The translations under genes and the position numbers were made by a program. From Candidatus Latescibacterota bacterium (GTDB lineage: Bacteria; Krumholzibacteriota; Krumholzibacteriia; WVZY01; JAKEHA01), in contig OY970173.1 of NCBI GenBank assembly GCA_963707635.1, forward strand, positions 1,792,001-1,856,000: 64,000 nt of DNA, written 5' to 3'. How positions within the stretch are numbered: the stretch's first letter is position 1; the number at the start of each line of letters is the position of its first letter. Positions 3,445 to 6,531 of this stretch are shown here, piece after piece. The notes beneath the pieces were generated by a model. That model was not told where the DNA came from, ran no database searches, and saw nothing but the letters and a program-made list of their open reading frames with translations.

Positions 3445-6400
3445 ATGACCACCCGCAACGTGAGGCCGTTCGTCCACCTGCGGGTGCTCTCGTCGTACAG
3501 CCTGGGACTCGGCCTCTCCACTCCCTACGAGATCTGCCAGCACGCGCGCCGCGTGGGCTTCGACTCCGTGGCACTCACCGACGTCAGCGGCACGTACGGC
3601 TTCGTCGAGTTCCATCGCGCGGCGCGGGAAGCCGGCATCAAGCCGATCTACGGCGTGCTGGTGTTCCTCGACTGGCGCAACCCGCCCGAGCGCGACGACA
3701 CCCCCCACTGGCTCACACTCCTCGCGCTGGACCGTGCCGGCCTTCGCCACGTGAGCGCGGCGGCGAGCATCTCCGCGATCCGTCGCGAGCGGGGCGACGG
3801 CCTCTTCGTCGCCGACCTGGAGGGAATCACCGACGGCGTGGTGGCGATCGCCGGCGCGGCGCCGCGGCCGGATCACCCCTCGCCGCGCCACCTGTTCGCG
3901 CCGCTGGTCGAGATGTTCCACGACCGCCTCTTCGTCGAGTCGCGGGCCGGCCTGGCCGGCGACCACGCCGCGGCACAGGAACGCGTGCTCGCCGACGCGA
4001 GCGTGCTGGGTGTGTCACCGGTGCTGGTGCAGGATGTCCGCTTCGTGGGTCCCGCCAGGCCCCAGCTGGAAGACCTGCTCGCCAGCGCGGACGATCGCGC
4101 CTTCGAGCACCGCGTGTTCGGCGATGCGCGCACCGGTGGTGCGGGTGCCGACGACGGCATGCGTACCGCCGCGGACATGTCGGAATGGTACGAAAGCAAT
4201 GCCGAGGCGTACTCGAACGCCGCCGTGATCGCGGCGCTGGTGCAGCCGGATCTCCTCGACGCGCTGGAGGAGAACCCCTCTGCTGCACCGGCGGGGTCGC
4301 TGGCCCCGGCGCCGGACGCACGCATCACGCTGCGCATGCGTGTGGACGCGGCCTTCGCGCGCGCGGCTGCCGAGATGGACGTGCCCGGCCGCGCGGCGCT
4401 ACGGGGCATTCTGGACCGGGAGCTGGACGCGCTCGCGCGCACCGGCCTGGAGTCCGCCTTCCTCAAGTTCGAAGCGATCGCGCGCCGCGCGCGCGACGCC
4501 GGCATCGCGCTGGGACCCGCGAGCGGCCTCGCGTTCCAGTCGAAGTGCGCGTACCTGCTCGGCCTCACCTCCTTCGATCCCTACGCGGTGGACGAAGGGT
4601 TCCACCCCGCCTTCGTCGACGCGGTCGGCGACGGGTGCGTGCTCGACGTGCAAGTCGCACCCGACGACCGCCCCCGGCTGCTCGCGGTATTGAACCGTGC
4701 CTTCGACGACGCGAGTGTGGGGTACGTGCCCACCGTGGAGCACATCACCGCCGCGCGGGCGCTTCGGATCGTGGCGAAGCGGCTCGGCGTCTCCGCGTCC
4801 GAGTACGAAGACGCCGCGCGAGTGGCGTCGCGCCACCAGGGCGTGTCGCTGCGCGAACTGGCCGAAGAGAACCGCACCATCGGAATCATGTACCGCCAGA
4901 GCGCCGCGTTTCGCGAGCTGGTCTCGCACGCGGCGTCAATTGAAGGATTGCCGTTCGGGTTCGCGCGCACCAAGCGCACGCTGGTGGTATCGCCGCGCCC
5001 GCTGCGCGATTTCCTCGGCTATACCGTGAGCCCCGACACCGGCGAGCACTTCGTGCAATCGACGCGCGACTCGTTTCCGACCGGCGCGGTGAGCCGCATC
5101 GACGTGTCGACTCTGCATGCGCTGGCGGTCCTGGGGAGCAGCGCCGCGGGGTGGGACGGCGACAGGACCCGCGGGAGTGGCTACGAGCTGATCGAAGCCG
5201 ACGACCTCGACGGGATCTACCTGCTCGAGGGAGCGCCTCGGCGGCTCGCGCGCGCCTTCGGAATCCAGGCATTCGACGATCTCGTGCTGTTCGTCGCCCT
5301 CATGCGGGATCGCACCAGCAGCCTGTCGCTGGGGGATCGACTGGTCGCATTTCGCGGCGAGCCCCTGACCACGCCCGCAGAGGCGACCGTTGGGAACGTC
5401 CTGGCAACGACGAACGGGTGGCTTCTGTTCAAAGACCAGGTGCGGGATGTGGTCGCGCGGCTCACCGGTCTTGCCAGCGATGAAGCCGCGCGCCTCGCGC
5501 ACCGGTTTCGGGATCATTCGCCGGGGAACCTCGCTGCGCTGCGGCGCGAGTTCCTTTCGCTCACCGTGGAGCAGTCGGTTTCGTTCGAGGACGCGACGGC
5601 ATGGTTCGGCCGCCTGGTGCGATACGCGCCGCAGGTGATGGATCGCCAGCGCGTCATCGCGGAGTGCCTGATCACCGACCGATGCCTGGCCATGAAAGCA
5701 GCGCACCCGCTTGAGTTCATGGCCCGGGTGCTCGACCACGCCGCCGACGAGGAACGGCGGGCGCGCTACCGCGAAGCCCTCGAGCGGGGCCGGCGGTGGC
5801 TGCCTCCCGACCTGCGCAAGAGTGGCCGCGGGTTCCGGGTGGAGGGGAAGGGGATCCGGGCGCCACTGTGGACGATCGACGGAGTCACCCGCGACGTGTC
5901 GGATCGGATCCTCCGGGCGCGTGGACTAGCCGGTATCTCGGCTCCAGATGAGTTGTTGATACAAACGGTTAGAGAGTATGGAGTAAGTAACACTTCAATC
6001 GAAGCGCTGGTGGCGGCCGGCGTGGTTCGGTCCGGCACCGGCCTCGAGGTCACACCCGAACCGGCGACCCGGGGCGCCAGCCACGGGGGGACGGCGCCGG
6101 CGCAGCTCGGAATGTCGCTCGAGGCGGAACCGGAGCCGGCCGCTTTGGCGCCCGCCCACAAAGAAGGAAACTCCGGCCAGGCGTTCCGCGTACTCCCCAC
6201 AGTGCTGGAGTTCTATCCCCACCCGAATGCGACCCCGGTGGAGCTTGTGGGTCGCATCCGGAATCTCCGCGAGTTCAGGTCCGCCGCTGGCAAGCCGATC
6301 GGCTTCTTCGAGCTGTTCGACGCCAGCGGATCGGTGCGGGTGTTCGCACCCTGGGACCACGTCGTTCGAGCGGGTGAACCGCTCCGCGACGGGAGTCGCG

Positions 6401-6531
6401 CGGTCGTGCGAGGGAAAGTGCGGCTGCGCGACGGCAGGAAGGTGTGCGACGCGCTCGAAGTCGTGCCGACCGAAGAAGGGATGGGACATGGAGAAGCTTC
6501 CCCTGACAACCCGGCAACGGGAGATTCTTGA
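3445..6531 (+). CDS. DnaE (Pol III alpha)-like protein with degenerate catalytic motifs
   Basis: PHP-like N-terminus (FVHLRVLSSYS...ALTD...GIKPIYG), palm-like region (AYLLGLTSFDP), HhH-like IDGV, C-terminal OB-like (VGRIRNLR...FFELFDASGSVRV...VRGKV); canonical PDIDxD replaced by CVLDVQ. Confidence 0.85.
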   Translation: MTTRNVRPFVHLRVLSSYSLGLGLSTPYEICQHARRVGFDSVALTDVSGTYGFVEFHRAAREAGIKPIYGVLVFLDWRNPPERDDTPHWLTLLALDRAGLRHVSAAASISAIRRERGDGLFVADLEGITDGVVAIAGAAPRPDHPSPRHLFAPLVEMFHDRLFVESRAGLAGDHAAAQERVLADASVLGVSPVLVQDVRFVGPARPQLEDLLASADDRAFEHRVFGDARTGGAGADDGMRTAADMSEWYESNAEAYSNAAVIAALVQPDLLDALEENPSAAPAGSLAPAPDARITLRMRVDAAFARAAAEMDVPGRAALRGILDRELDALARTGLESAFLKFEAIARRARDAGIALGPASGLAFQSKCAYLLGLTSFDPYAVDEGFHPAFVDAVGDGCVLDVQVAPDDRPRLLAVLNRAFDDASVGYVPTVEHITAARALRIVAKRLGVSASEYEDAARVASRHQGVSLRELAEENRTIGIMYRQSAAFRELVSHAASIEGLPFGFARTKRTLVVSPRPLRDFLGYTVSPDTGEHFVQSTRDSFPTGAVSRIDVSTLHALAVLGSSAAGWDGDRTRGSGYELIEADDLDGIYLLEGAPRRLARAFGIQAFDDLVLFVALMRDRTSSLSLGDRLVAFRGEPLTTPAEATVGNVLATTNGWLLFKDQVRDVVARLTGLASDEAARLAHRFRDHSPGNLAALRREFLSLTVEQSVSFEDATAWFGRLVRYAPQVMDRQRVIAECLITDRCLAMKAAHPLEFMARVLDHAADEERRARYREALERGRRWLPPDLRKSGRGFRVEGKGIRAPLWTIDGVTRDVSDRILRARGLAGISAPDELLIQTVREYGVSNTSIEALVAAGVVRSGTGLEVTPEPATRGASHGGTAPAQLGMSLEAEPEPAALAPAHKEGNSGQAFRVLPTVLEFYPHPNATPVELVGRIRNLREFRSAAGKPIGFFELFDASGSVRVFAPWDHVVRAGEPLRDGSRAVVRGKVRLRDGRKVCDALEVVPTEEGMGHGEASPDNPATGDS

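Follow-up and report, generated by a model that had tools for sequence, protein, structure and literature searches.

Polymerases that keep their fold after losing their catalytic residues, and that are retained as scaffolds, are already known from the Y family, with ImuB, and from the B family, with the C-terminal half of Pol epsilon. For the C family, to which the alpha subunit of bacterial DNA polymerase III (Pol III alpha, DnaE) belongs, the relevant passages of PMC12926913 give four active groups and mention inactive representatives in the Y family, PolX1 and exonuclease domains only; the survey of PMC3919608, where it describes the choice of its sequences, dropped C-family sequences without an intact active site; and PMC8565304, where it mentions dinB-COG0587 operons, does not call such a protein inactive. 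No paper describing a dead C-family polymerase was found in the literature searched (most subscription journals lie outside it), and a preliminary description of the DNA studied here, made from the sequence alone, likewise knew of no inactive C-family equivalent. Here we analyse a candidate for such a protein, encoded by a gene that we term iDnaE. It lies in a stretch of 64,000 nucleotides (nt; hereafter the window) from the genome of a Candidatus Latescibacterota bacterium placed by GTDB in the Krumholzibacteriota (assembly GCA_963707635.1, contig OY970173.1, positions 1,792,001 to 1,856,000 of the forward strand). We consider it highly probable that iDnaE is a polymerase-dead DnaE paralog that is maintained, bears a clamp-binding motif and is coupled to the SOS repressor gene lexA.

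Set against DnaE1 proteins of solved structure (Escherichia coli 2hnh and 5fku, Thermus aquaticus 2hpi and 4iqj, Mycobacterium tuberculosis 7pu7 and 5lew), iDnaE is predicted to have the same fold, ordered as PHP, palm, thumb, fingers, helix-hairpin-helix (HhH), clamp motif and OB, with the internal clamp motif at the same alignment position in both. However, it is 21–25% identical to them, carries Gln in place of the second catalytic Asp (D403 in E. coli), and has lost the GS, FERF, RPGP and GYGFNKSH motifs. Both iDnaE and DnaE2 (ImuC) are additional DnaE copies that look non-essential, are similar in length and have a degenerate PHP site, but the DnaE2 encoded in the window keeps all its catalytic motifs and has no Q-type clamp motif at the aligned position, and iDnaE is not linked to imuA-imuB. 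With ImuB, iDnaE shares a polymerase fold kept without catalytic residues, a clamp motif and a LexA-linked context; it differs in belonging to family C instead of Y and in lying outside the imuA-imuB-dnaE2 cassette, in a window that has an imuB-like gene of its own. The C-terminal half of Pol epsilon, as far as it is treated in the pertinent part of PMC2669801, is also a replicative-polymerase fold retained as a non-catalytic part, but that module is part of a eukaryotic B-family protein, in which it is joined to an active half, whereas the bacterial, C-family iDnaE is free-standing. By analogy, iDnaE most likely works like an ImuB-type inactive polymerase.

The assignment to the C family rests on architecture and predicted structure. 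Translation and Pfam searches bear out the uninterrupted open reading frame (ORF) of 1028 amino acids (aa) and the PHP-palm-HhH-OB order given in the preliminary description: the frame has zero internal stops, and five Pfam DnaE domains occur in the canonical order (with the Pol III alpha palm at aa 321–541), all above cut-off and all weaker than in the window's DnaE2. For PF07733 the two proteins score 68.8 and 279.6 bits, respectively. The NCBIfam models of both subfamilies stay below their cut-offs on iDnaE, with 206.6 bits for the DnaE1 model PRK05673 (cut-off 1002) and 114 bits for the DnaE2 model PRK05672 (cut-off 939), the latter giving 1341 bits on the window's DnaE2. The source genome, which is 3.2 Mb in one contig and 96% complete, holds exactly three PF07733 matches, namely a 1151-aa DnaE1, DnaE2 and iDnaE. 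An AlphaFold2 model built from a 101-row alignment reached a predicted local distance difference test score (pLDDT) of 87.7 and a predicted template modelling score (pTM) of 0.82, with disorder confined to aa 1–3, 217–224, 868–912 and 1011–1028. When this model was compared with the PDB using Foldseek, all 14 top matches were solved Pol III alpha chains (E 1e-36 to 1e-46, best 1.4e-46), the best being 7pu7, 2hpi, 4iqj, 5fkv and 2hnh (E 1e-38 to 1e-46) from M. tuberculosis, T. aquaticus and E. coli; matches in the ESM Atlas were generic Pol III alpha clusters only. As a fold, iDnaE is by these predictions a C-family protein of the DnaE type.

In C-family polymerases the incoming nucleotide is held by the GRGS motif, the FERFLNxxR motif and the Lys before the third catalytic Asp, and mutants of E. 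coli Pol III alpha have shown that all three catalytic aspartates are needed. According to the passage of PMC3919608 that deals with them, these aspartates (E. coli D401, D403 and D555) are absolutely conserved across the C family. Erosion of these sites was counted on an alignment (A1) of 36 iDnaE family rows and 65 canonical DnaE rows, taking as reference the columns whose conservation among the canonical rows is 92% or higher. Among the 103 columns so defined, 34 are kept in at most 10% of the family rows and 39 in at least 80%. Among the columns lost are those of Arg and Ser in GRGS, those of E, R, N and R in FERFLNxxR, and the HAGG, FQLES, RPGP, YQEQ and GYGFNKSH motifs.

Relative to E. 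coli Pol III alpha and to the DnaE1 and DnaE2 of the same genome, the canonical GPGRGSxAGS reads GPASGLAFQS in iDnaE, with GP[AST]TG[LMI]xxQS as the family consensus; the equivalents of R360 and S362 occur in 0 of the 36 family rows, the GS-motif Ser being replaced by Leu, Met or Ile. Likewise FERFLNPER has become FHPAFVDAV, and its E, R, N and R are kept in 0–2 of the 36 rows (R388 equivalent in none, R394 equivalent in two). The E. coli PDFDVDF aligns with CVLDVQV, so that the D401 equivalent is retained as D401 of iDnaE (Asp in 18 of the 36 rows and mostly Glu in the others), while the D403 equivalent is Gln (Q403) throughout the family. The D555 equivalent is D553, again Asp in 36 of 36 rows, and the Lys before it (K551) is Arg in all of them. 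In the fingers of iDnaE, RPGP reads RDRT and both YQEQ and FQLES are altered. Across 30 family rows, Q365, S366, Q403, R551 and D553 are invariant. Judging from the alignment, the replacements in the active site of iDnaE are family motifs, not random decay.

The PHP domain shows a similar loss at its metal site, which in proofreading exonucleases consists of nine residues, HHDHEH[C/H]DH, as set out in the corresponding passage of PMC12926913. In iDnaE, RxL stands in place of HxH and TDV in place of TDH, and GxEAY lacks its Glu; judged on these three elements, the protein would not be a PHP proofreading exonuclease. The HxH is retained by some family members only, and the PHP is otherwise among the best-conserved parts of the family, with many invariant positions between aa 16 and 100.

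The alignments thus agree with what the preliminary description had read by comparison with the window's DnaE2, namely the replacement of GRGSAANS, of the FERF-type motif by FHPAFVDAV and of PDIDLD by CVLDVQ, and the changes of HxH and TDH in the PHP. Its statement that the Asp of a KxD-like motif is the sole survivor has to be corrected, as the E. coli alignment shows two carboxylates kept and only the D403 equivalent replaced. Its proposal that the protein is non-catalytic is supported at the level of sequence by the 34 of 103 conserved columns lost in the family: iDnaE has neither the three aspartates nor the nucleotide-holding residues of a C-family enzyme, which supports a non-catalytic protein.

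Despite this erosion, a candidate clamp-binding motif is kept. QLGMSL (aa 887–892) aligns with QFGLF of the genome's own DnaE1 just N-terminal to the OB fold, at the position of the internal clamp motif of DnaE, as the preliminary description had noted from the sequence. The pattern Q[LM]x[LMF]x[LF] is found in every family row shown in the alignment, Q887 is at least 90% conserved in the family, and the motif lies in a linker that is predicted to be disordered (pLDDT <50). A complex prediction of the genome's own DnaN with aa 860–930 of iDnaE gave weak support, with 0.57 against 0.01 for the best of three controls and with one of three runs at 0.01. Of 157 solved complexes, 116 attain the mark applied, as do 2 of 215 mismatches; with values up to 0.60, it is attained by only 18 of these solved complexes but by both of the passing mismatches. 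Agreement in these runs was at least 0% of contacts and partner pLDDT at least 31; because clamp-peptide complexes have already been solved, the pass may reflect memory or likeness only. Taken together, the conserved motif in a disordered linker and the weak pass in the complex prediction suggest, in line with the clamp-binding role proposed earlier, that iDnaE likely docks on the beta sliding clamp.

Family members occur in two forms, and it had escaped the preliminary description that one of them ends exactly at this motif. In the long form, to which iDnaE of the window belongs, the core is followed by the motif, a linker, the OB and a tail. Proteins of the short form, with about 870–920 aa, have no OB and end directly after the clamp motif, for example with GQLELPFDS. 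Short forms make up a nested subclade of 10 rows (FastTree support 100), and this nesting in the family tree indicates that the OB was lost secondarily.

The family is conserved within one bacterial order. We searched a set of 208 genomes of the phylum with a hidden Markov model (HMM) built from the family only and took a score of at least 580 bits as family level. Such scores were obtained in 31 of the 35 other genomes of the same order, and fragments at contig ends in two further genomes (G006 and G017) bring the total to 33 of 35; nothing was found in G013 (80% complete) or G032 (84% complete). Outside the order, none of 172 genomes of the phylum scored above 440 bits with this HMM, 440 bits being the level of an ordinary DnaE1. 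A search of 1.84 billion representative proteins gave 400 bits or more for full-length members of the family, and the next full-length proteins are DnaE1-like, at 181 bits or less and 27–29% identity; of the best non-family matches of at least 900 aa, 117 of 118 are DnaE1-like. In trees, the iDnaE family is a clade of its own on a long stem, apart from DnaE1 and DnaE2.

Orthologs with open frames, identified by protein search in 41 related genomes, are 54–60% identical within the genus, 41–43% within the family and 33–37% within the order. The ratio of non-synonymous to synonymous substitution rates (dN/dS), computed by the Nei-Gojobori method (NG86), ranges from 0.15 to 0.39 over 21 pairs of seven genomes, and from 0.153 to 0.248 on the five pairs with dS <0.7; from the control comparisons, seven DnaE1 rows (with G012 or G002) and five DnaE2 rows (with G008) were excluded as wrong frame or gene (identity 0.24–0.32). 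The orthologs, full-length or fragmentary, in 33 of 35 other genomes of the order, the dN/dS of 0.15–0.25 on unsaturated pairs and the invariant replacement motifs support the conclusion, already suggested in the preliminary description, that iDnaE is maintained under purifying selection and is no decaying pseudogene.

The strongest clue to function, one that the preliminary description missed, is the overlap with lexA (Table 1). The first 44 nt of lexA, counted from its ATG, are also the last 44 nt of iDnaE, read in a different frame, and the same 44-nt overlap was obtained at each of the 10 related loci on the plus strand where it was computed. Directly downstream of iDnaE, lexA is present in 19 of 30 related loci, at the level of genus, family and order. 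The 11 loci without it are eight short forms, one locus cut by a contig end (G015) and two long forms (G016 and G026). The iDnaE-lexA gene order is conserved, and the two genes, overlapping and in the same orientation, are probably translationally coupled. The same 44 nt (6488–6531) encode both the conserved LexA N-terminus and a conserved C-terminal tail of the long form, G.GET.PD.P..GD[SP]; conservation of this tail may be imposed by lexA and not by the dead polymerase.

Table 1. Coordinates in the window of iDnaE, its parts and the other genes mentioned in the text.
Feature	Position	Strand	Basis or remark
iDnaE (polymerase-dead DnaE paralog)	3445..6531	+	ATG start, 1028 aa; ORF and translation
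PHP domain, aa 11–138	3475..3858	+	Pfam PF02811, 59.9 bits
Replaced GS motif GPASGLAFQS, aa 357–366	4513..4542	+	alignment
CVLDVQ at the PDxDxD site, aa 398–403	4636..4653	+	alignment; predicted beta strand 399–404
RID, aa 551–553	5095..5103	+	alignment; predicted strand 549–556
Fingers domain, aa 580–709	5182..5571	+	Pfam PF17657, 32.5 bits
Helix-hairpin-helix domain, aa 786–863	5800..6033	+	Pfam PF14579, 37.8 bits
Predicted disordered linker around QLGMSL, aa 868–912	6046..6180	+	pLDDT <50
Candidate beta-clamp-binding motif QLGMSL, aa 887–892	6103..6120	+	alignment with DnaE1
OB fold, aa 932–1007	6238..6465	+	Pfam PF01336, 28.6 bits; predicted strands 931–1008
lexA, 211 aa	6488..7123	+	TIGR00498, 153.2 bits (cut-off 110.95); Pfam LexA_DNA_bind and Peptidase_S24
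tRNA-Lys(TTT)	2643–2718		between purA and the iDnaE-lexA pair
wrbA/flavodoxin-like gene	2860–3423		ends 21 nt before the iDnaE ATG
dnaE2	49001–52222	-	all catalytic motifs kept
rhlE	52189–53595	+	
arsM	54289–55182	+	
ORF without assignment	55233–56168		within the mutasome region
imuB-like degenerate Y-family gene	56199–57698	-	PF00817, 29.5 bits; DinB models 48 bits against cut-offs >250
imuA-like RecA-fold gene	58145–58789	-	PF00154, 33.3 bits
LexA-like (lexA2-like) gene	58915–59658	-	PF01726, 27.5 bits

As a whole, these data are best explained, with a confidence that comes close to even, by a conserved third DnaE paralog that is predicted to be polymerase-dead, likely docks on the clamp, and is encoded by a gene overlapping the start of lexA by 44 nt. 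How such a protein would act we suggest more tentatively. iDnaE would be synthesized together with LexA and would attach to the clamp by its Q[LM]x[LMF]x[LF] motif, and its polymerase-shaped body would then occupy primer-template or clamp sites where it extends no DNA. It would serve as a placeholder or brake, in competition with active polymerases (DnaE1, DnaE2, DinB) during or after DNA damage.

Several observations weigh against this explanation. The DnaN complex prediction is a weak pass, with one of its three runs at 0.01 as described above. The eight short-form loci do not adjoin lexA, and of four short-form genomes searched for LexA, two (G027 and G035) gave no match and two (G024 and G028) only LexA-like genes of 27–32% identity, one of those in G028 lying near a DnaE2-like gene. 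In this genome iDnaE begins 21 nt after the wrbA-like gene, and the only sigma-70-like promoter match between 2550 and 7600 is at 2600–2628, ahead of the tRNA-Lys gene. No RNA sequencing run was listed as containing this DNA, and the DNA runs listed contain it at small shares only. We searched for inverted repeats (half-site 4–6, spacer 0–10) shared among upstream regions, and no LexA operator or shared palindrome was found upstream of wrbA/iDnaE, lexA2-like, imuA-like, imuB-like, dnaE2, recA or dinB, where GC-rich CGCG/GCGC repeats were the only ones seen. By eye, AT-rich palindromes lie between −35-like and −10-like hexamers in some related genomes (for example GCATACGTTTGTATGC in G025 and ATACATATGTAT in G023), from which no common motif was derived. 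With no operator found upstream, the case for damage induction is the putative operon with lexA. Finally, two of the three catalytic carboxylates are kept (Asp or Glu at 401, and D553), and the invariance of Q403, R551, Q365 and S366 indicates selection on the former active site, which may still have a binding or other role.

The competitor that survives best, although it appears unlikely, is an ImuB-like adaptor. In this case iDnaE would connect the clamp with a translesion polymerase that is active, such as DnaE2 or DinB, and mutagenesis induced by damage, not the braking of replication, would depend on it. The logic is that of ImuB as presented in the relevant parts of PMC12926913 and PMC3919608, namely a dead polymerase fold combined with a clamp motif and an SOS context, and the window's DnaE2 has no Q-type motif at the aligned position. 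The distance between iDnaE and dnaE2 is about 45 kb in the window and, on one contig of G002, about 51 kb. However, the window contains a split mutasome set (49001–59658, minus strand) that already provides an imuA-like and an imuB-like gene upstream of dnaE2. Within it, an unassigned ORF, arsM and rhlE separate the lexA2-like/imuA-like/imuB-like set from dnaE2; its LexA-like gene and the lexA that overlaps iDnaE give the genome two LexA-type genes. In the loci examined, iDnaE never adjoins dnaE2, dinB or imuAB, and co-occurrence with DnaE2 is not strict, as G024 and G031 show iDnaE with one other DnaE (two matches each, in incomplete metagenome-assembled genomes). A placeholder or brake is preferred over an adaptor because of this separate set upstream of dnaE2 and because, in the loci examined, iDnaE is never found beside the gene of a translesion polymerase.

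Less likely still is that iDnaE serves as a partner or regulator of LexA, tethering it to clamp-loaded or gapped DNA, or modulating LexA cleavage or synthesis, and thereby linking fork status to the SOS switch. Conservation of the 44-nt overlap extends over genus, family and order, the short-form clade lacks both the OB domain and an adjacent lexA, and a less eroded paralog of the sister family, described below, also has lexA directly downstream. Nevertheless, short forms persist without lexA, which indicates a core function independent of both LexA and the OB domain, and a single deletion that removed the 3' end of iDnaE together with lexA would explain the short form, and hence the joint loss, without any interaction.

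We regard it as improbable that iDnaE is still an enzyme, with a conserved [DE]-x-Q ... R-x-D site whose chemistry has changed, for instance to a weak or specialised transfer of nucleotidyl groups or to the binding or hydrolysis of nucleotides. The two carboxylates kept and the five invariant residues would fit such a site, CVLDVQ and RID fall on the expected palm strands in the model, and the invariant residues leave room for binding of a ligand or a DNA end, or for altered chemistry. This has to be set against the Leu, Met or Ile at the GS-motif Ser, the loss of the basic residues of FERFLNxxR and of RPGP, YQEQ and GYGFNKSH, and the requirement for all three aspartates in E. coli Pol III alpha and their conservation throughout the C family. 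A decaying, functionless duplicate, lastly, is hardly credible: in the pair G000–G005 the non-synonymous rate of iDnaE is about 2.6 times that of DnaE1 and DnaE2 (dN 0.342 against 0.127 and 0.135), but open frames across the order, dN/dS well below 1 and the invariant family and clamp motifs already contradict decay.

The wider neighbourhood of iDnaE in the window comprises purA, the tRNA-Lys gene, the wrbA-like gene and lexA. purA is found upstream of iDnaE in G000, G023 and G025. The wrbA-like gene is peculiar to the window's genome, and several genus-level relatives have a tRNA gene directly upstream of iDnaE and no wrbA-like gene. A 224-aa ORF at 2763–3437 was rejected as a spurious frame, the real gene at this place being the wrbA-like one. 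Just downstream of lexA, positions 7518–10379 encode a 953-aa Ser/Thr protein kinase with C-terminal tetratricopeptide (TPR) repeats. At the short-form locus of G024, iDnaE is followed directly by a radical S-adenosylmethionine (SAM) frame (L033:6806–8449) resembling spore photoproduct lyase (PF20903, 53 bits); no other DNA-repair neighbour was seen beside the short forms.

Other DnaE-like proteins with eroded active sites occur elsewhere in the phylum. In the sister family (f4), six of seven genomes carry a different, less eroded DnaE paralog. At its five full loci (L087–L091, from G037, G042, G041, G043 and G045) it reads D/E-x-E/D with the third catalytic Asp changed to His in 5/5, it mostly keeps GRG[SNH] and FERF, and it keeps a clamp motif of the form Q[LM]x[LF]x[FL]; lexA follows directly downstream in all five. 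Two further families (f5 and f9) encode a DnaE-like protein of 909–960 aa (L104–L107, in G038:C7, G089:C30, G069:C32 and G117:C71) that has lost all three carboxylates and the GS motif, keeps the PHP HxH, and bears a QLSLF-type clamp motif at its extreme C-terminus, as in GQMSLFDE. No lexA was present in the fetched flanks of these loci (4/4 examined).

On unrooted mixture-model trees, the three dead groups fall on one side of a split from DnaE1 and DnaE2, with Shimodaira-Hasegawa-like approximate likelihood ratio test (SH-aLRT) supports of 93 and 89 and with long branches, and a single origin of the three is possible. The existence of three lineages in the phylum (the [DE]xQ..D form of the order, the D.E..H form of f4 beside lexA and the fully eroded, QLSLF-tailed form of f5 and f9), sitting together on these trees, leads to a broader reading that we consider doubtful. 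Pol III alpha paralogs that are dead but carry a clamp hook would then be an old, phylum-wide SOS class, the C-family counterpart of ImuB, of which the lexA-overlapping form would be a clamp-tethered LexA partner that reports fork status to the SOS switch or brakes forks during LexA cleavage.

For the annotation of genomes, genes of this kind call for caution, as the label 'DNA polymerase III subunit alpha' is readily given to them and they are then taken for active replicases or for DnaE2. For the biology of these bacteria, if the proposed role of iDnaE is true, a dead Pol III alpha with a clamp hook, produced from the message of LexA itself, would be a new player in the management of clamps and stalled forks after DNA damage.

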